From a virus, in UHGV virus genome UHGV-1360180: a DNA stretch of 43,730 bases. The stretch is one strand, 5' to 3'. Positions 1,535 through 43,149 of this stretch are shown one piece after another. Each line of letters opens with the position of its first letter. Position 1 is the first letter of the stretch. The translations under genes and the position numbers were made by a program. Under the pieces are notes generated by a model. The model saw nothing but the letters and a program-made list of their open reading frames with translations. It was not told the origin of the DNA and made no database searches.

Positions 1535-1767
1535 TTCGTAAAATGTTCAGGGTGCTTGGCGGGCTTGTGGCCTTCGTAGTTTACTGGGCAATGTTAGTGC
1601 CGCTTCTAGTTATCCTTCTTCCGCTCACGGTCTACGTTGCGATTAAGTACGAAACGGTAGACCCCGAGCAACTTGACTCAACGAAGGAAATTAAATGGGT
1701 GCAGAATTTGGAGGGGCCTTTCGAATACGTACTGATAGTTGAGAAAATAACTGGCTGGAAGGGTTGA
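1531..1767 (+). CDS. Small membrane protein
   Basis: ORF track 1501..1767; ATG at 1531 preceded by GAGGAGGA; strongly hydrophobic segment LGGLVAFVVYWAMLVPLLVILLPLTVYVAI. Confidence 0.4.
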   Translation: MIRKMFRVLGGLVAFVVYWAMLVPLLVILLPLTVYVAIKYETVDPEQLDSTKEIKWVQNLEGPFEYVLIVEKITGWKG

Positions 1768-1792
1768 CACCTGAATAGTTAACTATTATAGT
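1764..1792 (+). promoter_or_regulatory. Sigma70-like promoter TTGACA-N17-TATAGT with AATAGTTAACTATT palindrome in the spacer
   Basis: TTGACA 1764-1769, TATAGT 1787-1792; perfect 14-bp palindrome 1774-1787; 55 nt upstream of SSB-like gene. Confidence 0.45.
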
Positions 1793-1846
1793 TCTAATCA
1801 CTGGCCGGGCAGCTTCCCGGAGTAAACTTAAAAGCGAGAAATCAAG

Positions 1847-5167: not shown

Positions 5168-5448
5168 CTAAAGAGGGCCGCATCCAGAAATACGCAAAAG
5201 AGCGATTCGAGGCCCTCGGTGGCCTCGTACGTAAGATGGTGTATGAGGGTAGAAACGGAGCGCCTGATCTGCTAGTAGTACTTCCGGGAGGGGTGATATG
5301 GTTCGTCGAGGTGAAGAAAGACGAAAACACGGAACCGGAGGCCCATCAGTTGCGGGAACACAAACGGCTTCGTAAACGTGACGCAAATGTTTTTGTAGTA
5401 GGAACAAAAGAAGAGGTTGACGACCTAATAGCGAACTATTATAGTTAG
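5164..5448 (+). CDS. VRR-NUC domain nuclease
   Basis: 94 aa; PDLLVV...WFVEVKK motif (PD-(D/E)xK core) typical of VRR-NUC proteins. Confidence 0.6.
   Translation: MTKEGRIQKYAKERFEALGGLVRKMVYEGRNGAPDLLVVLPGGVIWFVEVKKDENTEPEAHQLREHKRLRKRDANVFVVGTKEEVDDLIANYYS
5417..5445 (+). promoter_or_regulatory. Promoter-like TTGACG-N17-TATAGT with AATAGCGAACTATT palindrome
   Basis: Same architecture as 1764-1792 and 43090-43118; lies in 3' end of VRR-NUC gene upstream of ORF at 5479. Confidence 0.35.
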
Positions 5449-8234: not shown

Positions 8235-8240
8235 AGAAAA

Positions 8241-8260
8241 GGCCCCGTTTGGGGCCTTTT
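8241..8260. terminator. Bidirectional rho-independent terminator
   Basis: GGCCCC-GTTT-GGGGCC flanked by AAAA and TTTT, between convergent genes. Confidence 0.55.
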
Positions 8261-8262
8261 CA

Positions 8263-10182
8263 TTACAACGACGGCGCGTAAGTTCCGTTAAAGTTAATCG
8301 AAATGCCGGAAGATTGCAGGTTGGCAGGAGTAATTAGTAAATCTCTAAGTGTAACAACCACCCAGGGATTTGCAGTGTTTGCTTTATCACAATAAACTCT
8401 TGTCAATGTGGTAGACGCGGCATATGCGGATACACTTGCTACAGTTAATGTTCCATCGTTGGAAGCATGGTATGTAGCAGACGGCATTGACGCAGTACGC
8501 CCATGCGTTATCGCAACGGCCCCCTGACTAATGACAGAAACAGAGATATTATTGCTAATCCACGATGGAACATTAGAGGTTGAAGGCGGTCGCCCATAAC
8601 GAATCTCACCTGTGCTTGTATTGACAAGGAAAGAAACGTCAGCATACACCGTGATTTTTAAATAGAATGCATTTCCAACTGTAAGCGGTTCCGCGTAAGC
8701 TCTTACACCTGTTATAGCCGTGGTGCGATCGACATCAGCGGAAGCATAAAACCAGTTTTCTGCATTGTCTGCAATTTCTACAGAAAAATAGTCACCGTCA
8801 GAAGATACAACTAGTTTATGCACGTTAGAGATTTTCCAGTTACTGGAAGTATCCTTAGATAAAAGAACCCATTTCGCGTTATCATTGCTGTATTTAATAG
8901 TGCCCGCGGCTAATTTTGACCGTGTCCATGGTGGGGCAAAATTTGAATATTGTGATAAATCGGTTGAGGTTTTATTGCTTGCTCCACCTTTAACTAATGA
9001 CCATAATCCTCTGGCACCTTCTCGCCCCATTGTATTGTAACCGCGTTGCGTATAGTGAACACCACCATCACCTTTTAAAAATGAAGGGCAACCGTCAAAT
9101 ACTGTCACGGCATTAGTCTTGCTATTACAAACCCACCTTTGCGCATTTTGAATAGCAGCCCACGACTCTTCCGTTCGGTTCCCCGGGCAACCAACGGTAA
9201 AATTACAAAATAAATCAAAATTAATATCGGTTTTCAGGTCATCTATCAAGGCTATAAAGCTGTCTCTATAACCATTGTATGTTGTCCCTGCTGTCATATC
9301 CGACTCGCCCTGGTGGTACATCACGTAAGTTTTACCGACAGGCAAACCAGCGGCAATCATTGCCTGTTTAGCTGACGCCACTGCATTTACCAACAGCGTG
9401 TAGTATGTGGTCCCTTTTGACAGTTGTGCAATGGTAGTTGCGCCACGGCCGCAGTGTACCTCCACTGAACCGCGCCCGCTAAGGCGATACCATTCATTCT
9501 CAAATTCCCCCCAGGCATGCCCAGATGATGTAACACCAGAAGAACTAACCACATTCTGTATAATTGGTTTTATTGCTCCATCACTAAAATCATACATTAG
9601 TGATTTCGGCAGAGCGGCAGGAAATCCTGACGTATCGCCAGATAAAATAGCCTCACCTGCACTATTCGACTGACCATAAGTTATAAAAACGTCATATACA
9701 TCAGGGGCCTCCACGTATTTTGTAGCCTCTATTCTGGACACAATATCCTTGGCCTCTAGCCCGGAAATTACGACTTGGCTATTTTCCGACGCCAACTCCT
9801 CCCGCAAATCAGGGTCAGTTTGAGGCTTCCAGTCCGCATTACCTACCGGATTAAACCCAGCGGGAACTGTAACCGGTAAAGTGCCAGCGTACGAGTACCA
9901 CGTCTTGCTTACAGGGTCATACACCACTTTGTCGCGGTCATTAGCGGTTAACGTACCGCCAGTAGAGAAATCCCAAGATACAGGAGAAAAGCCAGCATCG
10001 CGTAACACCGCCGGGAGCGTCTTCTGTGTCTGACCAGTAACCGGATTAGCCGCATAATCAATATCAGCGCCACCGGCTACTCCTCCGGATTTGCCCGTGA
10101 TAACCTCGGCTTCGAAAATCTGGTGTTTCTTGGCGGTTTGTAAATCCGCCAGGCTTAAAACGTCACCGCATCCGCTTGACAT
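8263..10182 (-). CDS. Tailspike/tail fiber with SGNH/sialate-O-acetylesterase-like domain
   Basis: 639 aa, last gene of tail block; GQSNSAGE esterase-type motif (VFITYGQSNS); N-terminal region typical of phage tailspike attachment domains. Confidence 0.55.
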   Translation of the reverse strand: MSSGCGDVLSLADLQTAKKHQIFEAEVITGKSGGVAGGADIDYAANPVTGQTQKTLPAVLRDAGFSPVSWDFSTGGTLTANDRDKVVYDPVSKTWYSYAGTLPVTVPAGFNPVGNADWKPQTDPDLREELASENSQVVISGLEAKDIVSRIEATKYVEAPDVYDVFITYGQSNSAGEAILSGDTSGFPAALPKSLMYDFSDGAIKPIIQNVVSSSGVTSSGHAWGEFENEWYRLSGRGSVEVHCGRGATTIAQLSKGTTYYTLLVNAVASAKQAMIAAGLPVGKTYVMYHQGESDMTAGTTYNGYRDSFIALIDDLKTDINFDLFCNFTVGCPGNRTEESWAAIQNAQRWVCNSKTNAVTVFDGCPSFLKGDGGVHYTQRGYNTMGREGARGLWSLVKGGASNKTSTDLSQYSNFAPPWTRSKLAAGTIKYSNDNAKWVLLSKDTSSNWKISNVHKLVVSSDGDYFSVEIADNAENWFYASADVDRTTAITGVRAYAEPLTVGNAFYLKITVYADVSFLVNTSTGEIRYGRPPSTSNVPSWISNNISVSVISQGAVAITHGRTASMPSATYHASNDGTLTVASVSAYAASTTLTRVYCDKANTANPWVVVTLRDLLITPANLQSSGISINFNGTYAPSL

Positions 10183-17190: not shown

Positions 17191-17297
17191 TCTTTAATCC
17201 TTTGGTTAAGAGGTTACAGGTTAAGGTTGACGCGCCAGACGGGAACCACCCGCTTTTCGTGTGCGACACTAGGCGCAAACTTATTCTAGCACACTAC

Positions 17298-17330
17298 TTG
17301 CACACCCCAATATAATAGGGTACTATTCAC
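17298..17330 (+). promoter_or_regulatory. Conserved 33-bp promoter TTGCAC-N17-TACTAT with embedded AATAGGGTACTATT palindrome
   Basis: TTGCACACCCCAATATAATAGGGTACTATTCAC; near-identical copies at 26525, 29515 and, on the minus strand, 39602; 25 nt upstream of island gene at 17355. Confidence 0.5.
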
Positions 17331-17354: not shown

Positions 17355-17681
17355 ATGCGTAAATTAGTATTAGCTCTGGGGTTTATGTCTTTTGCTGCTT
17401 TTGGGTCTCCGTGCGAACAGGTATTTAGTGAATCTGTTCTTATTACTTCTGGCGTACTTGAGAAAGCCGACCCTACTATTGTAAAGGCGTTTAAGGACTC
17501 TACAGTTCGTGAATGTGAGGCCGCCGTAGAGGTCGGTAAATCGGGCCTACCCCCGCAAGCCGTAACGTACACGGTGATACGTTCGGTAGAGAAAAACGGA
17601 GACGCGTTTTACAGCCTACTGACGGCCACCCGCCTGCAAATGGTAATGACTGGGTGGGCGATAGGCGTGGAAAGTAAATAG
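17355..17681 (+). CDS. Small secreted/periplasmic protein
   Basis: 108 aa; N-terminal signal-peptide-like MRKLVLALGFMSFAAFG; RBS GAGGA; opposite strand to flanking tail genes. Confidence 0.5.
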   Translation: MRKLVLALGFMSFAAFGSPCEQVFSESVLITSGVLEKADPTIVKAFKDSTVRECEAAVEVGKSGLPPQAVTYTVIRSVEKNGDAFYSLLTATRLQMVMTGWAIGVESK

Positions 17682-17746
17682 TCGCCTTTATTTAAAGGAA
17701 TGCACTGTGGTTAAATAGGACAAATCCTAAACACGAGGACGTAAGA

Positions 17747-18877
17747 ATGGCCCAGAAGAAAATAACCGACGAACAGTTACAGGAAGAATTGAACGCCGGT
17801 ATGAAGAATATAGATATAGCTAGTAAATACGGCATCTCAGACCGCGTTATTCGTATTCGTAAGGCGAAGCTGGCTAAGAAAGGGGTCGGTCACGGGCGAG
17901 ACGTTAGTCACCTTGTGCCGGACGGCTACAAGATTAAAGGGACGTCGTCCCTGGTGGACGAGTTTGGCAACACTAAGTTGCAATGGGTTAAGACTGACAC
18001 TGACGCCGAACGTCAGGTCGAGTTGATGAAAGCCGTAATTGAGGGCATGAAGTCGGAGATTACGCCGGTCGCCCCTGTTAAAGCCGTTCGCGCCAAACGC
18101 GACGACAAACTACTCAATCTTTACACGGTATCTGATTTCCATCTCGGTATGCTGGCCTGGGCCGACGAGAGCGGCGACGACTGGGACATGAAGATTGCGG
18201 AAGACCTGTTCTCCCGTTGGTTCGATGCTGCATTTCAGAAAGCACCGGATGCGGGCACGGGCGTTATTAACCTGCTTGGCGACCTTGCGCACTTCGATAG
18301 CCTGGATGCGGTTACGCCAGCGAGTGGCCATGTTCTTGATGCGGACACGCGCTATCAGAAACTGGTCCGCTACATGATTCGCATGGTCCGCCGTGTTATT
18401 GATATGGCGCTGGTTAAGCATAAAAATGTTCGCTTGCTTATCGTGCAAGGTAACCACGACGAGAGTGGCATGATTTGGTTGGCTGAGATGTTCAGTACGC
18501 TGTACGACAATGAGCCGCGTGTGTTCGTCGATACGTCGCCGGATGTTTACAAGATGGTGCAACACGGCAAAACGACGCTGTTCTTTCATCACGGGCACAA
18601 GGCACGATTCGACGCTATCGAACCGGTTATGATCGCCAAGTTCCGTAAAGCCTTCGGCGAGAGTGTTTACAGCTACGCCCACGTAGGCCACCTGCACCAC
18701 CAAAAGATTGTAGAGAGCCGTAATATGGTTGTTGAGCAACACCGCACCTTAGCGGCTAAAGACGCCTACGCCTCTCGCGGCGGATGGATGTCAGGCCGTA
18801 GTGCAAATGTAATTACTTATAGCGCCGAATATGGTGAGGTCGCTCGTTTAACTATTTCACCGGAGATGCTGGGATGA
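17747..18877 (+). CDS. Metallophosphoesterase (SbcD/Mre11-like calcineurin-fold) with N-terminal HTH-like domain
   Basis: 376 aa; motifs VSDFHLG, GDLAHFD, GNHD, HHGH, GHLHH; N-terminal ~45 aa HTH-like (NIDIASKYGISDRVIRIRKAK). Confidence 0.6.
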   Translation: MAQKKITDEQLQEELNAGMKNIDIASKYGISDRVIRIRKAKLAKKGVGHGRDVSHLVPDGYKIKGTSSLVDEFGNTKLQWVKTDTDAERQVELMKAVIEGMKSEITPVAPVKAVRAKRDDKLLNLYTVSDFHLGMLAWADESGDDWDMKIAEDLFSRWFDAAFQKAPDAGTGVINLLGDLAHFDSLDAVTPASGHVLDADTRYQKLVRYMIRMVRRVIDMALVKHKNVRLLIVQGNHDESGMIWLAEMFSTLYDNEPRVFVDTSPDVYKMVQHGKTTLFFHHGHKARFDAIEPVMIAKFRKAFGESVYSYAHVGHLHHQKIVESRNMVVEQHRTLAAKDAYASRGGWMSGRSANVITYSAEYGEVARLTISPEMLG

Positions 18878-19104
18878 CTTCAAAATACAACCGAACAATG
18901 ACAAACACTCACGGCAGCACTATGACAGTAGACGTCTACGATGTGCTGCGCGCCTTCGATATCCGGGACCCGGCGTTACAGCACGCATTGAAGAAGCTAT
19001 TGTGCATGGGCTTGCGAGGCCACAAAGACACCGGAACAGACTTAGCGGAAGCAATCGAAAGTCTCGAGAAGTTACGGGAATACCGAAGTAACATTGACGA
19101 GTAA
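18874..19104 (+). CDS. Hypothetical protein
   Basis: 76 aa, ATGA-coupled to upstream gene. Confidence 0.4.
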   Translation: MTSKYNRTMTNTHGSTMTVDVYDVLRAFDIRDPALQHALKKLLCMGLRGHKDTGTDLAEAIESLEKLREYRSNIDE

Positions 19105-19109
19105 GAAAA

Positions 19110-19125
19110 GGCCCCGAAAGGGGCC
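19110..19125. terminator. Bidirectional terminator
   Basis: GGCCCC-GAAA-GGGGCC hairpin between convergent genes. Confidence 0.55.
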
Positions 19126-19131
19126 TTAGTT

Positions 19132-26205: not shown

Positions 26206-26524
26206 GTTTCTCCTTTCTCGATAAGTAAAGCCCCGCCATAAAGCGGGGCGCTAGGCCTTATCATTTAAACATAGAAACGGCGTAATCTCAGTAAACCAGT
26301 TACTTTTTACACAAGCAATAGAGTATGGCCATTCCGAACGCGTCAGCGTAACTACACTCAAGACTTACGTCCCGCTCCGTTACCTGCCCGCGCCGCGGTC
26401 GCTTGTTCATACTTCACAAGCTCAGGTGGAGCTTAGCACATTTTCAGTGAAAAGTCAACTATTCGAATAGTTTATTCTAACATTTACAATTCGGTGGAAT
26501 AACTGGAATAGGTTAATAAATAGT

Positions 26525-26557
26525 TTGCACACCCCAACATAATAGGGTACTATTCAC
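26525..26557 (+). promoter_or_regulatory. Conserved 33-bp promoter (TTGCAC-N17-TACTAT) with AATAGGGTACTATT palindrome
   Basis: TTGCACACCCCAACATAATAGGGTACTATTCAC; upstream of plus-strand island. Confidence 0.5.
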
Positions 26558-26594: not shown

Positions 26595-26756
26595 ATGAAA
26601 TTAGCAAAAAGAATTACCGTAAATACTAATTTAAGTTCGAAAAATGGGGACAAACGTAAGTTCCGCCGTAAAATGCGTCAGATTGTTAAACTTGACTACA
26701 TTTTCGAAGAAACGATTGCACTAGTGGCAAACGCTGCCCGTAACTGGGGGCGCTAA
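26595..26756 (+). CDS. Small basic protein (53 aa)
   Basis: Manual translation MKLAKRITVNTNLSSKNGDKRKFRRKMRQ...; RBS GGGAGATGG; first gene of island. Confidence 0.3.
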   Translation: MKLAKRITVNTNLSSKNGDKRKFRRKMRQIVKLDYIFEETIALVANAARNWGR

Positions 26757-26757
26757 T

Positions 26758-27222
26758 ATGATGTATGCAATTTACGTAGCGGCGATATGCGCTGCTAACT
26801 TTTCGGTAACTGTGTTTGGTCCGTTAGCGACACCGGTAAATGCCTTTCTACTTATTGGGCTTGATTTCGTAATAAGAGATAAGTTGCACGAGAGGATTGG
26901 CGTACAAAAAATATTCATACTGATACTAGTAGCTGGCATTATAAGTTTCTCCATAAACCCGGCAACCGGAAAGATTGCTGTGGCAAGCGTTGTTGCCTTC
27001 GCTTGTGCTGCCATCCTGGATGCCGTTGTTTACCAGGCACTAATCAATAAAAAGTGGCTAGTTAAGTCAAATGTAAGTAATACCGCGGCCTCGGCGGCGG
27101 ACTCTTTTATTTTCCCACTAATAGCTTTCGGTTCTTTCATGCCGCTAGTCGTACTGGGCCAATTCGCGGCTAAGGTTTTTGGCGGAGCTTTGTGGTCTTT
27201 CTTGTTGAGGAAAATTAAATGA
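26758..27222 (+). CDS. Polytopic membrane protein, candidate queuosine-precursor transporter (YhhQ/DUF165-like)
   Basis: 154 aa, ~4 hydrophobic helices; translationally coupled to TGT-like gene; family assignment from recall, not a search. Confidence 0.4.
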   Translation: MMYAIYVAAICAANFSVTVFGPLATPVNAFLLIGLDFVIRDKLHERIGVQKIFILILVAGIISFSINPATGKIAVASVVAFACAAILDAVVYQALINKKWLVKSNVSNTAASAADSFIFPLIAFGSFMPLVVLGQFAAKVFGGALWSFLLRKIK

Positions 27223-27953
27223 CGGTGCATTACCACGGGGGTCCTATTTGGGGTGGGGATGAGCTTATAAAAGCATTGTACCGTGGGGGTGGCGCTCTGG
27301 TGTCATATGCCCGCCCTGACCAAATACAAAAAATCGCCGCCTTGAGATGTAAATTAGTGTTGGACAACGGAGCTTTTTCGACATGGAAGAAAGCACCTGA
27401 CAACATAGACTGGAGCGCCCATTGGGCAGGATATTATGATTTTGTCGGAGAGTGGTTCAGTCGTATTGAGTGGTTCATTATACCGGACGTTATAGAGGGC
27501 ACGGAGGAAGAGAACGACGCATTAATAGAAACTGTCCCAGATTGGTTAAGGTCTAAGGCAGTCCCGGTGTGGCACAGTGACGAAAGCATAAGAAGACTAG
27601 TAAAGCTGTGCCGTGGGTTCAATCGGGTAGCGATAGGTTGCTGCGGACCGCACAGGGCCATACGGTCTAAGTCATGGGAGAAAAGAATGGACCAGGCGTT
27701 TAATGCGGTTTATAGAAACAGAAAATTGGATGTAAAACTCCATGGCCTTAGAATGCTGGATGGGAGGGCTCTAAGCCGTTATCCTTTCGACAGCGCTGAC
27801 AGTACAAACGTAGCTATAAATGTGCCAAAAACTAAAGCAAGACTACCTAACATAACAGACAAACTACATCGAACCGCTATAATGAGGCACACCATAGAAA
27901 TGGTTAAACCCCCTACAGTAACGGAATGGTTACTTAAAACTAAGGCCCCTTAA
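27219..27953 (+). CDS. tRNA-guanine-transglycosylase-like protein, candidate DNA 7-deazaguanine transglycosylase (DpdA-like)
   Basis: 244 aa; LVLDNGAF resembles TGT substrate-binding motif (TDSGGFQ); acidic IIPDVIEG; adjacent to transporter-like gene. Confidence 0.5.
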   Translation: MTVHYHGGPIWGGDELIKALYRGGGALVSYARPDQIQKIAALRCKLVLDNGAFSTWKKAPDNIDWSAHWAGYYDFVGEWFSRIEWFIIPDVIEGTEEENDALIETVPDWLRSKAVPVWHSDESIRRLVKLCRGFNRVAIGCCGPHRAIRSKSWEKRMDQAFNAVYRNRKLDVKLHGLRMLDGRALSRYPFDSADSTNVAINVPKTKARLPNITDKLHRTAIMRHTIEMVKPPTVTEWLLKTKAP

Positions 27954-27964
27954 CGGGGCCTTTT
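27944..27964. terminator. Bidirectional terminator
   Basis: GGCCCC-TTAAC-GGGGCC-TTTT; overlaps stop of TGT-like gene. Confidence 0.55.
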
Positions 27965-28427: not shown

Positions 28428-29524
28428 TATTCCCCTTTCAGATAATCAGCAACACGTTTATCGAGTTCCGCCATCTGCTTAAGCGTCAGCGGATTCCCGA
28501 AACCATCTACAGATATTACGCGAAACTCTTCCGGCGATATACCGCTGTTACGGAAAATCTTACCGCGAACAGGGCCGAGCGCCTGGTCCTGGAACCATGC
28601 CGGTTGCTGTTTCAGGAACTCGTAATAGGTTGTGTCTGCGCTTACTTGTGTGCCGCCGTCCGCGCCCTTAGCAGCGCGTTTTGCCCCTTTATCGAGGAAG
28701 TCGAACTCTGAACTGATTACCGGAGCCGTACACGACCGACAGTTCGGATGGGCTGGTGGCATCGGCCCTTTACCGATCTCCCACGTCATTCCGTCTCTGG
28801 CTCTGCAAATCGTACTGGTACGGCTATCAAGCGTTGACACCCACTCGTACTTCTCGATGATGTCGTCGTTCTGGCGGTACGTCTCGTTACGGGCTTCGTT
28901 GGACACATGGGACAGGGCAGTGCGGATTACGGTAGCCGCGTTACGTTCAGAGATATCAGCCAGGCCACCGGCACCAACAACATTCTTTACAATCTGCCGC
29001 GTTGTCTGACCCTGAACAAAGCCCATCTTAACGCCGGTTACCAGGCGCGATACCTCTGTTTCACCCCAGCCCGACATCAGCTTAGTGAAGTCAACAGGCT
29101 TGTCACCCAACGATAAGGGTTGAAACTCGGCCGCGGCCCACACCTGCTCGGCAGTAGGCGTAACAAATTCCGCGTCTACGTTGGCGGTAAGTGTCTTTGC
29201 GTTCCACTCAGCCTCGTACGCCGCCAGTTCCTTAAGGTCTTCTGTCAGTTTTGTTTGCCAGTCGCCTGTAAGTCCGGTTAACGCTTCTTCAAGGTCGCGT
29301 AACAGTTTATTCAGTCGCGCAGTGCTGCGCCCATCGTCGCCGAATAGCAGAACCTGCCGTTTGATTTCATCTCGCATTTCCTGAATGAACGGCGCGAGGT
29401 CTTTCACCTCACCGGATGCGGTGCGTTGCAGCCATATCTGGTGGCTGATTAGGGATGTAAGTAAGCTCATAAGCCCTCCTGTCGTATCGACAGTGTAACG
29501 CATAAAAATAATATTTGCAGACAC
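28427..29524 (-). CDS. Head morphogenesis protein (minor head protein family, putative)
   Basis: 365 aa directly downstream of portal gene, the usual position for this family. Confidence 0.45.
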   Translation of the reverse strand: MSANIIFMRYTVDTTGGLMSLLTSLISHQIWLQRTASGEVKDLAPFIQEMRDEIKRQVLLFGDDGRSTARLNKLLRDLEEALTGLTGDWQTKLTEDLKELAAYEAEWNAKTLTANVDAEFVTPTAEQVWAAAEFQPLSLGDKPVDFTKLMSGWGETEVSRLVTGVKMGFVQGQTTRQIVKNVVGAGGLADISERNAATVIRTALSHVSNEARNETYRQNDDIIEKYEWVSTLDSRTSTICRARDGMTWEIGKGPMPPAHPNCRSCTAPVISSEFDFLDKGAKRAAKGADGGTQVSADTTYYEFLKQQPAWFQDQALGPVRGKIFRNSGISPEEFRVISVDGFGNPLTLKQMAELDKRVADYLKGE

Positions 29525-29547
29525 CAGTATAATAGGGTACTATTCAC
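29515..29547 (+). promoter_or_regulatory. Conserved 33-bp promoter (TTGCAG-N17-TACTAT variant) with AATAGGGTACTATT palindrome
   Basis: TTGCAGACACCAGTATAATAGGGTACTATTCAC upstream of single-gene island. Confidence 0.5.
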
Positions 29548-29585: not shown

Positions 29586-29900
29586 ATGATTGATTATCGT
29601 GCTCGCGCCACAAAAGCGGAACAAGAGAACGCTGTTTTAAGAGATAAATTAGCAAAAAAGCCTAATTTTGCTTGGTTCGTAGAGCAGGTAAGGTCTATGC
29701 TTAAAATACGTGCTGACGCACCTTTTAACGAAATAATAGCTAAGATTAAGGTATTGCGCGACAATCAAGAGCTATATAGAGAGGGTGCCGCAGTTCGTAA
29801 GTCCAACGATGAAGATGCAGAAAGATACTTCAATGAGGGTGTAGAGGAAGGAAAAAGAATGGAACGCGATAGAATTAAAAAACTAATAGGAAAAGTCTAA
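29586..29900 (+). CDS. Hypothetical protein (single-gene island)
   Basis: 104 aa, charged/helical; RBS GAGAGG; own promoter and terminator; opposite strand to flanking portal/head genes. Confidence 0.45.
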   Translation: MIDYRARATKAEQENAVLRDKLAKKPNFAWFVEQVRSMLKIRADAPFNEIIAKIKVLRDNQELYREGAAVRKSNDEDAERYFNEGVEEGKRMERDRIKKLIGKV

Positions 29901-29920
29901 GGCCCCTTATGGGGCCTTTT
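29901..29920. terminator. Bidirectional terminator
   Basis: GGCCCC-TTAT-GGGGCC-TTTT. Confidence 0.55.
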
Positions 29921-35359: not shown

Positions 35360-35395
35360 AAATATAATAGGGTCTAGGGTAATAGTCAACTAGTC
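35360..35395 (-). promoter_or_regulatory. Promoter-like TTGACT-N17-TATATT (minus strand)
   Basis: Reverse complement reads TTGACTATTACCCTAGACCCTATTATATT; contains ACCCTATTAT related to the conserved promoter core. Confidence 0.3.
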
Positions 35396-35410
35396 ATTGC
35401 AGAAAATAAA

Positions 35411-35443
35411 TAAAAAAAAATCCCGGCTGTGCCAGGGCCGGGA
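35411..35443 (-). terminator. Rho-independent terminator after lysis cassette
   Basis: CCCGGC-9 nt loop-GCCGGG followed on minus strand by nine T. Confidence 0.5.
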
Positions 35444-38251: not shown

Positions 38252-38283
38252 TGAATAGTAGCCTATTCTATCTTAGTGTGCAA
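38252..38283 (-). promoter_or_regulatory. Promoter of the TTGCAC-N17-TACTAT class (variant) with AATAGTAGCCTATT palindrome
   Basis: Reverse complement CTTGCACACTAAGATAGAATAGGCTACTATTCA. Confidence 0.4.
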
Positions 38284-38598
38284 GTAAATTTTATTGGTGT
38301 TTTAGGGATAAGCGTTCGCTACGAATCCAGTAGTACCTCGGGCGTCTCGCCCACTGACGCCATCGCATAACACGGTACTTGTTGCCGTCTGACGCAACGA
38401 TAAGCCCGAATCGCTTTTCTCCGTTTCTACCGGTCCAGGTTACGATGTCATTCAGTTTCATTGTTGCATCTCTCGCAATAGTTGCTTCGATTGTTGCGTT
38501 TGGTGAAATAGAACAGAAATGAGAAAAATGATACGCTGCTACACAGCAGCGTAAGTCACTCAGTAAAATAGTAACCTATTGACCTGTTACACCACCTG

Positions 38599-39601: not shown

Positions 39602-39634
39602 GTGAATAGTATCCTATTATGTTGGGGTGTGCAA
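39602..39634 (-). promoter_or_regulatory. Conserved 33-bp promoter (TTGCAC-N17-TACTAT), leftward early promoter
   Basis: Reverse complement TTGCACACCCCAACATAATAGGATACTATTCAC. Confidence 0.5.
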
Positions 39635-39882
39635 GAGAATAGTTACGTTGCCGTTGTGATTCTTTGGGGAAGGTTGCGCCTTTATTCTTATTACTTGGTA
39701 ACTAAAGGGCAGGCCTTAAGCCTGCCCAATAATCGTTACATTTTTACGGTTGCGAATCTACGGCACATTAAGAAAATCATATACTTAAGAGATATGCTGC
39801 CGATGAGAATAGAGCTTGCCCATGGCAACCGGAGATACTTAGGAAGGAAAGTTACGATAATTCTCATGTTCAGTAAGCCTGT

Positions 39883-39914
39883 GTTTAACCCTTTGCTTGT
39901 CGCACGGGTTAAAC
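39883..39914. other. Stem-loop with 9-bp stem in divergent intergenic region
   Basis: GTTTAACCC-14 nt-GGGTTAAAC; second hairpin GGGCAGGC-CTTAA-GCCTGCCC at 39707-39727. Confidence 0.4.
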
Positions 39915-40004
39915 ATTCTTACAAGGTGAACAGGAATCAAAGTAACTAAGATATAGAAGCACCTTAAACGAAGATTTTCTTAATGTCAATAGGTGCGATT
40001 ATGT

Positions 40005-40033
40005 TTGATTTCCCATTATTCGCAATGTATACT
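40005..40033 (+). promoter_or_regulatory. Sigma70-like promoter TTGATT-N17-TATACT (rightward)
   Basis: Upstream of HTH gene; spacing 17. Confidence 0.4.
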
Positions 40034-40065
40034 TGGTTTCGTTAACTGATAATGAGGGTTTGAGA

Positions 40066-40236
40066 ATGACACAGAATGAGGTAGCGGAGCGTATAGGAGT
40101 TACTCGTCGCACGCTGAATAACTGGTTAAAGAGCGGGAAGTTCCCGGATTGCTGTATTCGCATTATGGGTCGCCGTCAGCCAGGTACGTTTGACCCGGAG
40201 AAGGTGGAAGCGTGGATTAAGGAGAACGTGAAATGA
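40066..40236 (+). CDS. Helix-turn-helix DNA-binding protein (excisionase/AlpA-like fold)
   Basis: ORF track 40033..40236 (TTG); likely ATG at 40066 after GAGGG. EVAERIGVTRRTLNNWLKSGKFP HTH signature. Confidence 0.5.
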   Translation: MTQNEVAERIGVTRRTLNNWLKSGKFPDCCIRIMGRRQPGTFDPEKVEAWIKENVK

Positions 40237-42803: not shown

Positions 42804-42818
42804 GGGGCGTTAAGCCCC
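42804..42818. terminator. Terminator hairpin shared by convergent genes
   Basis: GGGGC-GTTAA-GCCCC preceded by A-run, overlapping stop of repressor gene. Confidence 0.4.
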
Positions 42819-43025
42819 TTCACCGAACGCCAACCACTTGGCGTCTACTTGCAGCACTTCCGCCAGTTTAAACAGCGTCGCCGGGCGGACGTCCTGAGTT
42901 ACCCCGAGCGCAAGCTGGTTAATCGCGCCCTGGGAAACGCCGGCCAGGACCGCAAGACGGCGCTGGGAGATGCCTAGTTCTTTACGGCGTTGTTCTACAC
43001 GGATGCCTAGTTCGGATGGTTGCAT
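42810..43025 (-). CDS. XRE-family HTH transcriptional regulator (Cro/CI-like)
   Basis: 71 aa; LGISQRRLAVLAGVSQGAINQLALG HTH; AAGGAG RBS. Confidence 0.7.
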   Translation of the reverse strand: MQPSELGIRVEQRRKELGISQRRLAVLAGVSQGAINQLALGVTQDVRPATLFKLAEVLQVDAKWLAFGEGA

Positions 43026-43055
43026 GTCGATTACTCCTTAGTCAGTTGATATGTG

Positions 43056-43118
43056 AATAGTACCATATTAATTATTTTAGAAAAGCCCATTGACAAGTGA
43101 ATAGTTCGCTATTATAGT
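43056..43118. promoter_or_regulatory. Divergent control region with two operator-like palindromes and rightward TTGACA-N17-TATAGT promoter
   Basis: AATAGTACCATATT 43056-43069 next to repressor gene start; AATAGTTCGCTATT 43100-43113 within spacer of promoter TTGACA 43090-43095 / TATAGT 43113-43118. Confidence 0.45.
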
Positions 43119-43149
43119 TAGCCCATACCAAACGAGAGGAGAGAAACAA

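Follow-up and report, generated by a model that had tools for sequence, protein, structure and literature searches.

The genome analysed here carries a 33-bp element in five copies, which is rather likely a host sigma-70 promoter combined with a 14-bp operator for a helix-turn-helix protein, and which would head exchangeable gene cassettes. The promoter activity, the repression, the binder and the recombination contained in this reading we infer, whereas the repeats, their palindrome, its conservation and its registers as well as the cargo swaps, the relocation of a cassette and the empty sites were observed directly. We suggest that the element works as follows. The host promoter TTGCAC-17 bp-TACTAT would be fused to a palindromic operator, AATAGnnnnCTATT, which overlaps the -10 hexamer. 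A dimeric helix-turn-helix protein of the phage could bind to this operator and block RNA polymerase. Occupancy of the operator would then jointly turn down the leftward small-ORF units, the replication operons, the regulator's own gene and three gene islands. The islands in turn are accessory cassettes, each composed of the putative promoter-operator, a stock 5'UTR, one or more ORFs and a bidirectional hairpin terminator, and are placed at terminator sites within the long leftward late operon.

The window, that is the whole stretch of 43,730 bp which was analysed, has the size of a complete genome and was assigned by megablast to the genus Kagunavirus (Guernseyvirinae, siphophages of E. coli). 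It is 90-93% identical across long stretches to the phages fFiEco02, Bas70-76 and AV104, and its orientation is the reverse of that of the annotated relative Bas71. Between about 39.6 kb and 8.26 kb the genes form a long leftward series on the minus strand, with small ORFs, lysis genes and genes for terminase, portal, head, tail and tailspike. The genes of replication and recombination are on the plus strand, in a stretch that begins at about 40.0 kb, passes across the end of the window and reaches 8.23 kb. The leftward series is broken by three islands on the plus strand (17355-19104, 26595-27953 and 29586-29900).

The initial annotation had described a near-identical promoter at four positions and a looser version at a fifth. 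We searched the window with the 33-mer TTGCACACCCCAAYATAATAGGGTACTATTCAC, allowing up to three mismatches, and used 100 dinucleotide-preserving shuffles as control. Two exact matches are present on the plus strand (17298-17330 and 26525-26557), together with a plus-strand TTGCAG variant with three mismatches (29515-29547) and a minus-strand copy with one mismatch (39602-39634); the shuffles gave no match at all (4 in the window against 0.00 expected). The looser fifth copy at 38252-38283 on the minus strand, with the sequence TTGCACACTAAGATAGAATAGGCTACTATTCA, emerged as inverted repeat I4, which is 35 nt long and 83% complementary to the copy at 17295-17329. The repeat was thus recovered at all five positions, and the proposed reading TTGCAC-N17-TACTAT holds as well.

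Embedded in the 33-mer is the 14-bp palindrome. In an unbiased scan for palindromes with 5-bp arms it is by far the most over-represented one, with nine exact copies in the window against 0.00 expected, and there is a further copy with one mismatch at 43056-43069. The conservation over 33 bp is mainly due to this embedded palindrome. Five of the copies are the repeats, which we call class A. Three lie in the rightward promoters of replication genes at 1762, 5415 and 43088 (class B), and one is found at 38567. The five repeats would thus be a subset of about ten putative operator sites, nine of which are promoter-like, and since the repeats belong to this larger set the co-regulation would reach beyond the leftward operon. 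The putative promoter-operators and related sites are:

17298-17330, plus strand: candidate class A promoter-operator of island 1, TTGCAC-N17-TACTAT, with the core AATAGGGTACTATT at 17314-17327; kept in about 35 related loci
26525-26557, plus strand: candidate class A promoter-operator of island 2; in relatives it heads at least 12 different cargo families
29515-29547, plus strand: candidate class A promoter-operator of island 3, TTGCAG variant
39602-39634, minus strand: candidate class A promoter-operator before the four small ORFs of the first leftward unit, found as a match of the 33-mer
38252-38283, minus strand: looser class A copy before the small ORFs and lysis genes of the second leftward unit, found as inverted repeat I4
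1762-1793, plus strand: candidate class B promoter-operator with SSB and DNA polymerase genes downstream, 11/12 consensus positions, with a homologue in Jerseyvirus
5415-5446, plus strand: candidate class B promoter-operator with methyltransferase and helicase genes downstream, 10/12, with a homologue in Jerseyvirus
43088-43119, plus strand: candidate class B promoter-operator divergent from the Cro-like gene, TTGACA-N17-TATAGT, 11/12, with the core at 43100-43113 in the spacer
43048-43071, minus strand: class A-like -10 plus core, TTAATATGGTACTATTCAC, with one mismatch in the core; the site precedes the Cro-like gene, and its -35 is poor
38567-38580, no strand assigned: exact core palindrome without a recognisable -35, adjoining the terminator at 38532-38553

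The plus-strand copies had been placed shortly upstream of the island starts, and indeed they end 25, 38 and 39 nt before the ATG codons at 17355, 26595 and 29586, each of which is preceded by a Shine-Dalgarno-like purine run. Both class A and class B have a -35 hexamer related to TTGACA, a spacer of 16-18 bp and a -10 hexamer of the form TAnnnT. Class A agrees with the consensus at 7 of the 12 hexamer positions, including the key TTG and TAnnnT positions; with only 7/12 it is not listed by a consensus scan. Most likely the class A repeat is a sigma-70 promoter of moderate strength. The class B sites reach 10-11/12 in the same scan and are among the best sigma-70-like sites of the genome. As for host factors, we know of no ArgR, Fur or MarA box that fits the element.

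The palindrome occupies a fixed position relative to the hexamers, and this position differs between the classes. In class A the core follows TTGCAC after 10-11 nt and the -10 hexamer TACTAT lies within the core. The one-mismatch copy at 43056 would likewise provide a class A-like -10 (TACTATTCAC) for the minus-strand helix-turn-helix gene. In class B only 4 nt separate TTGACA from the core, and TATAGT, the -10 hexamer, takes its first base from the last T of the core. Yet another register (class C) is seen at the island 1 promoter of Jerseyvirus, where TTGCAT is followed after 7 nt by the core and by the -10 hexamer TATTAT. All three registers keep a spacer of 17-18 bp, and the core always lies over the spacer or the -10.

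The leftward genes appear to be divided into several transcription units. As had been proposed for the leftward operon, the copy at 39602 stands at its head: it precedes a unit of about 1.1 kb with four small ORFs, which extends to the terminator at 38553-38532. The plus strand of 39602-39634 possibly holds a weak divergent promoter, TCGATA-N17-TATGTT. The copy at 38252 heads small ORFs and the lysis genes, a unit that ends at the oligo-T terminator at 35436-35422. The packaging and structural genes are preceded by a strong promoter-like site on the minus strand, TTGACT-17-TATATT at 35389-35361, which has no core. With the structural genes behind this core-less site and the small-ORF and lysis units behind a core, every non-structural unit would therefore be covered by a putative core-bearing promoter.

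We then compared 71 loci at the phosphoesterase gene of island 1 and 42 loci at the primase-helicase gene from IMG/VR. Among 79 unique class A contexts of Kagunavirus the segments TTGC, AATAG and TACTATTCA are invariant, with variation in the core centre and in the 5' spacer half; in 54 unique class B contexts the left arm of the core, at about -25, is equally invariant. Part of this invariance is inherited, as many of the 79 and 54 contexts come from orthologous sites. The homologous promoters of Jerseyvirus, a genus of phages that infect Salmonella, have the core too. Sigma-70 is not in base-specific contact with the spacer around -25. An invariant arm at a place where sigma-70 reads no bases is most simply explained by a dimeric DNA-binding protein, and because the site overlaps the footprint of the polymerase, such a protein would act as a repressor. 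Most likely, the palindrome is thus a putative operator within the promoter. An exact search of IMG/VR with a 19-mer of the motif returned nine stretches, all of them in contigs of the size of Guernseyvirinae genomes, so that no spread outside the family is seen. In Cornellvirus FSL SP-031 there are no AATAG-N4-CTATT sites; the island promoters of this phage have a different palindrome, ATATTA-N6-TAATAT.

Could the copies be alike simply because cassettes were recently duplicated or converted, the 33-mer being an ordinary promoter and nothing more? Some promoter variants are indeed common to several sites, as the GGATAC variant of the early leftward promoter, which recurs at island 1 in the loci L016, L017, L019, L022, L027 and L028, and the stock 5'UTRs travel along with the promoter. 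However, two genera and three promoter architectures share the arms of the core, with variation in the adjoining spacer and in the core centre. This argues for selection on the arms and not for recent copying, and we regard such an origin as very improbable.

Another possibility is that the palindrome is no protein operator but a by-product of bidirectional promoters with symmetric -10-like hexamers, namely TACTAT, TATTAT or TATAGT on one strand and TATTAT or TATATT on the other. Such promoters could re-initiate the interrupted late operon at the island borders. The island 1 site of Jerseyvirus would fit, as it has mirror-image -35 hexamers, TTGCAT and TTGACG, each 7 nt from an arm. The minus strand of the copy at 17298 reads GTTACA-17-TATATT (9/12), and most relatives have TCGATA-17-TATGTT at the divergent early site. 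Over all loci, however, the opposite-strand hexamers of class A score between 4/12 and 9/12, change with the cargo and have no conserved -35, which rules out bidirectionality as a general property of class A. In class B, moreover, the invariant left arm lies in the spacer and has no hexamer role on either strand, and beside island 2 there is a separate conserved leftward promoter-like site at about 26420-26460. Thus, it appears improbable to us that the palindrome arose in this way.

The same core sequence has been reported before. A PHIRE search of the Kagunavirus fBC-Eco01 gave seven sites in the genome with the consensus tgAATAGTa-ccTATTat-T, and these were labelled promoters of a phage RNA polymerase (PMC9825357). 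The palindrome, the -35 and -10 registers, the cassettes and a regulator are not described in that paper (PMC9825357). Against a phage polymerase speaks that no gene for one is annotated in Bas71 (82 genes) or FSL SP-031 (59 genes), nor was one found in searches of the family. In addition, the cores stand at a fixed register to a TTGNNN hexamer, at 17-18 bp spacing to a TAnnnT hexamer, which points to host sigma-70 instead. A palindrome is also, as far as we know, atypical of promoters of single-subunit RNA polymerases. In our view recognition by a phage polymerase is extremely unlikely.

If the palindrome is an operator, which protein binds it? Two small proteins of the window come into question:

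42810-43025, minus strand: 71-aa Xre/HTH_3 protein, homologue of 434 Cro, antisense to the replication operon; candidate repressor
40067-40236, plus strand: 56-aa HTH_17 (excisionase-like) protein, product of the first rightward gene; rival candidate regulator

The likeliest binder of the putative operator is, in our view, the 71-aa Cro-like protein, which we favour over the HTH_17 protein. It matches Pfam HTH_3 at 1.2e-12, and its best match in the PDB is phage 434 Cro, itself 71 aa long (E = 4.9e-7, residues 6-68). With the Cro of a lambdoid Klebsiella phage it shares 45% identity; the CI-cro region of that phage has 14-bp ACAA-N6-TTGT operators. The protein is found across the Guernseyvirinae, and its gene has its own class A-like promoter site and a hairpin terminator. 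The gene is divergent from the class B promoter at 43088, so that two core sites are located in the 125-bp intergenic region. Against this protein speaks that its recognition helix reads SQGAINQL in Kagunavirus versus SQSLITHL in Jerseyvirus, although the core is common to both genera. Also, Cornellvirus keeps a homologue with 41% identity, though without the AATAG-N4-CTATT sites of the other two genera.

The arrangement resembles the Cro-operator systems of 434, P22 and lambda in several respects. There is a 71-aa HTH_3 protein homologous to 434 Cro, a 14-bp palindrome which overlaps promoters and is conserved in its outer arms and variable in its centre, and a pair of sites between the regulator gene and the divergent replication operon. 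As expected for operators of the 434 Cro type, the two-fold symmetric sites of about 14 bp all stand in promoter-like contexts except the one at 38567. In other respects the systems differ. Here there is no CI partner, integrase or lysogeny module, and about ten putative operators are dispersed over the genome instead of two tripartite operators. Further, the arm is AATAG and not ACAA, and the regulator gene has a cI-like position, oriented away from the replication operon.

The 56-aa HTH_17 protein (excisionase/MerR-like) could bind the palindrome in place of the Cro-like protein. As the first product of an early promoter without operator it could repress, or activate, all core promoters and so serve as a delayed-early switch. 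Its own promoter-like site at 40005-40033 (TTGATT-17-TATACT) has no core, and the protein is confined to Kagunavirus and Jerseyvirus, exactly the two genera which bear the core; at a threshold of 60% identity 443 records were found, most of them with 78-98%. Cornellvirus has neither the protein nor the core. Between Kagunavirus and Jerseyvirus it is 88% identical versus 52% for the Cro-like protein. In an RNA-seq study of a relative a helix-turn-helix gene is the sole early gene that is named. On the other hand, several other small proteins share this phylogenetic profile when the small early proteins are compared with Jerseyvirus and Cornellvirus, and the search of solved structures gave no significant homologue of the HTH_17 protein. 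Nor, to our knowledge, are short perfect palindromes typically read by dimers of HTH_17 or excisionase-type domains. Classical activation by the HTH_17 protein is further disfavoured by the overlap of the site with the -10, and it seems unnecessary at the class B promoters, which are already near consensus. We therefore think it unlikely, although worth keeping in mind, that the HTH_17 protein is the binder.

A different role of the palindrome would be that of a loading site. Lambda Q and Pseudomonas AlpA are proteins that load onto RNA polymerase at a promoter. In a comparable way a small phage protein, for example the HTH_17 protein, might board the polymerase at the palindrome and allow it to read through the hairpins at 38553-38532 and 35436-35422. 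The chance that this is so seems very small to us. If true, the late genes for lysis and structure would be driven by promoter-embedded antitermination in a lytic siphovirus family, and the mobile cassettes would have adopted this element for themselves.

Some expression data exist for the close relative K1B4. In low-resolution RNA-seq with sampling over several infection cycles, which names few genes and assigns time classes at gene level, the Imm gene of island 1 falls into a late-peaking group with two methyltransferase genes and a DNA polymerase family A gene; the structural genes around it are not in this group.

We now turn to the islands which the class A copies would drive. Their cargo and ends are:

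17355-19104, plus strand: cargo of island 1, three ORFs of 108 aa (secreted or lipoprotein-like), 376 aa (metallophosphoesterase, 'DNA repair exonuclease') and 76 aa
19108-19127, no strand assigned: putative terminator hairpin of island 1, AAGGCCCCGAAAGGGGCCTT, at the convergent junction with a tail gene, -15 to -17 kcal/mol on both strands
26595-27953, plus strand: cargo of island 2, three ORFs of 53 aa, 154 aa (Vut_1/YhhQ-like membrane protein) and 244 aa (TGT/DpdA-like protein, phrog_887)
27942-27962, no strand assigned: putative terminator hairpin of island 2, scored on both strands
29586-29900, plus strand: island 3 cargo, a 104-aa ORF (phrog_10768)
29899-29918, no strand assigned: putative terminator hairpin of island 3, found by folding and by the scan

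The islands had been described as self-contained units ending in hairpins of the form AAGGCCCC-loop-GGGGCCTT. Such hairpins are present at 19108-19127, 27942-27962 and 29899-29918, and in all three islands a promoter, a 5'UTR, one or more ORFs and a terminator follow each other in this order. The hairpins have 8-bp stems with six G-C pairs and fold with -15 to -18 kcal/mol on either strand. T-rich tails were scored on both strands of 27942-27962, on the minus strand of 19108-19127 and on the plus strand of 29899-29918, so that a G+C-rich hairpin with a U tract, as in an intrinsic terminator, is seen at each island. Hairpins of the same family also occur at 8239-8266 and 2499-2526, and thus the family is not specific to the islands.

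The initial annotation had proposed to look in related phages for alternative cargo between the same promoter and terminator. Such a comparison reveals many cargos, one cassette at two different sites, and empty sites. In island 1 the promoter and the 376-aa metallophosphoesterase are kept in all relatives while the flanking genes are swapped. The first gene, of 108 aa in the window, is elsewhere a superinfection-immunity protein of 63-72 aa or an ORF of 97 or 59 aa. The place of the trailing 76-aa ORF is taken by ORFs of 66 and 68 aa, by a PNKP-type phosphatase with a P-loop protein, or by a 111-aa protein together with the 76-aa ORF.

Island 2 is more variable still. Both flanks of this site and its class A promoter are conserved in about 30 genomes of Kagunavirus. 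The cargo between the same promoter and hairpin belongs to at least 12 unrelated families, which include small membrane proteins, a 173-aa protein and an N6/N4 DNA methylase. The cargo is preceded by one of about three stock 5'UTRs, which are conserved up to the start codon, and the stop codon is followed by the hairpin in the form 'TAA-aactaa-GGCCCC-loop-GGGGCC-tttt'. The three cargo genes of the window are all singletons among the sampled relatives, and for the TGT/DpdA-like protein the search of solved structures gave no match. A Jerseyvirus locus (L032) has a class A promoter of the Kagunavirus type at the island 2 site, yet carries another cargo.

Cassettes are also found at more than one site. 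The cassette for the 173-aa protein is located at the island 2 site in locus L003 and at the island 3 site in locus L004, with 550 of 606 nt identical; the flanks in L004 agree with the island 3 flanks of the window at 94/100 and 84/100 nt. In L004 the island 2 site is empty and consists of the hairpin only. The empty island 3 site of Bas71 retains a core remnant, TTAATAGCATACTAT, which abuts the hairpin. Swapped cargo, relocation and empty sites are the patterns which recombination in the conserved promoter/UTR and in the terminator would produce. Judging from these end states, cargo exchange and cassette movement most likely proceed by homologous recombination within these conserved segments.

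Similar arrangements are known as promoter-early stem-loops (PeSLs) from T4-type phages (Arbiol et al. 2010, PMC2839356; Comeau et al. 2014, PMC4122927). A PeSL is a single composite element with the stem-loop inside or abutting the promoter; about 50 of them occur per 170-kb myovirus genome, clustered in hyperplastic regions, and in cassettes of this type recombination between the motifs yields excised mini-circles (PMC2839356, PMC4122927). As in the T4-type phages, repeated promoters of the sigma-70 type and G/C-rich stem-loop terminators bracket nonessential ORFs, and the ORFs are inserted, deleted or replaced among related phages exactly between the elements, which also stand beside accessory genes inside conserved modules. 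In our case a repeated promoter and a stem-loop flank the ORFs in all islands and in about 30 relatives, and the breakpoints lie in the motifs. The two systems are nevertheless not identical. Here promoter and terminator are at opposite ends of the cargo and abut only at the empty site of Bas71. There are only three islands plus the similarly built Cro-like unit (promoter-like site, gene and hairpin), the genome is that of a 44-kb siphovirus in which the cassettes are antisense to the surrounding operons, and the promoter contains a conserved palindromic putative operator, a feature that was not described for PeSLs. A stable hairpin of the PeSL kind inside the 33-mer was considered and rejected, as the sole internal symmetry has A/T-rich arms of 5 bp, which we judged too weak.

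In lambdoid phages autonomous promoter-gene-terminator units between the genes of a conserved late operon, present in some relatives and absent from others, are called morons. The term comes from temperate phages, in which such units are as a rule expressed from the prophage and carry functions such as superinfection exclusion; they have reportedly been treated by Juhala et al. in 2000 and by Hendrix and colleagues. The islands likewise have their own promoter site and terminator, lie within the late operon, here in antisense direction, are present or absent among relatives and carry accessory functions such as superinfection exclusion. Unlike the lambdoid phages with their morons, however, the phages studied here are annotated as strictly lytic and have no lysogeny module, and the cassette promoters are not foreign but belong to the phage's own operator-bearing set.

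In summary, the swapping of cassette cargo is a known kind of phage genome plasticity, which is here found in a new family. The idea of modular shuffling mediated by promoters and terminators, as developed for PeSLs, would thereby be extended from T4-type myoviruses to an unrelated siphovirus family, and the published label of the motif as promoter of a phage RNA polymerase would be corrected. A single 14-bp putative operator at every non-structural promoter would be a simple model of temporal control. Phages of the Guernseyvirinae, with Kagunavirus and Jerseyvirus, are often used in therapy and biocontrol, and they serve synthetic biology as small chassis. Their island sites appear to be natural 'landing pads' with fixed promoter, UTR and terminator parts, at which at least 12 different accessory genes have already been placed. 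Since the cargo includes a methylase, superinfection immunity, a phosphatase of the tRNA-repair type and functions of the 7-deazaguanine type, these landing pads are of direct use for the engineering of payloads and for the mining of anti-defence genes.

The divergent early promoters, the leftward one being a copy of the class A repeat (the 33-bp promoter-like element TTGCAC-N17-TACTAT), are separated by a stretch of about 430 bp (39635-40066) in which no convincing open reading frame is found. It contains a strong hairpin at 39707-39727 and could be an origin or other regulatory region. On the late side, we found the following elements:

35436-35422, minus strand: oligo-T terminator, directly before the promoter-like site
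35389-35361, minus strand: near-consensus promoter-like site TTGACT-17-TATATT, upstream of the packaging genes

The latter site is conserved in Jerseyvirus and is a candidate late promoter. Within this region (35361-35436, minus strand), the promoter-like site has ACCCTATTATATT in common with the class A repeat when the repeat is read as its reverse complement.

A leader of about 110 nt 5′ of the tail-assembly-chaperone gene is common to Kagunavirus and Jerseyvirus:

17191-17297: leader in the window
about 9590-9690 in L030, L032 and L059: Jerseyvirus counterpart

Within the conserved leader of the window, a small hairpin, CGGGAACCACCCG, is followed by CTTTTC. In the same three Jerseyvirus genomes, the promoter of the cassette island 1 (about 9690-9730) has two -35 hexamers in mirror image, TTGCAT on one side and TTGACG on the other, with 7 nt between each hexamer and a palindrome arm. 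In these genomes, the promoter may truly act in both directions. In Cornellvirus FSL SP-031 (L115), the putative operator palindrome of the class A repeat, AATAG-N4-CTATT, is absent and ATATTA-N6-TAATAT is present at both island promoters (26544 and 33280). Near the island 2 region of this genome, we found three instances of GAATAATTTATTC (25438, 26069 and 26596), a motif also present in the IMG/VR loci L034 and L063.

The last open reading frame of island 1 (76 aa, 18874-19104, plus strand) matches longer PHROG families only over their C-terminal third (in phrog_2452, for instance, positions 150-220 of 235) and may be what is left of a once longer gene. A separate group of 44-45-kb phages (L040-L052) has homologues of the metallophosphoesterase of island 1, with about 76% identity. 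In these phages the gene is co-oriented, comes after the lysis genes and is served by unrelated promoters; thus, its distribution is wider than that of the cassette.

In a clustering of about 35 loci, each of the three proteins of island 2 is a singleton. The cargo includes, at 26758-27953 on the plus strand, a Vut_1/YhhQ-like membrane protein (Pfam, 6.8e-10), paired with a 244-aa protein similar to the PHROG family "queuine tRNA-ribosyltransferase" (4.6e-84). This pair hints at a DNA modification module of the 7-deazaguanine type.

To the left of island 2, the conserved flank contains a minus-strand promoter-like site, AATAGTTGACT-N17-TAAGCT (about 26420-26460). This flank is also found in the relative L004, where the island 2 position is empty. 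The site may restart leftward late transcription past island 2. In the Jerseyvirus genome L032, island 2 carries a class A promoter of the Kagunavirus type (TTGCAGACACCAACATAATAGGGTACTATTCAG, 18879-18911), behind which a cargo of 179 aa is encoded. This arrangement suggests a transfer of cassettes between genera.
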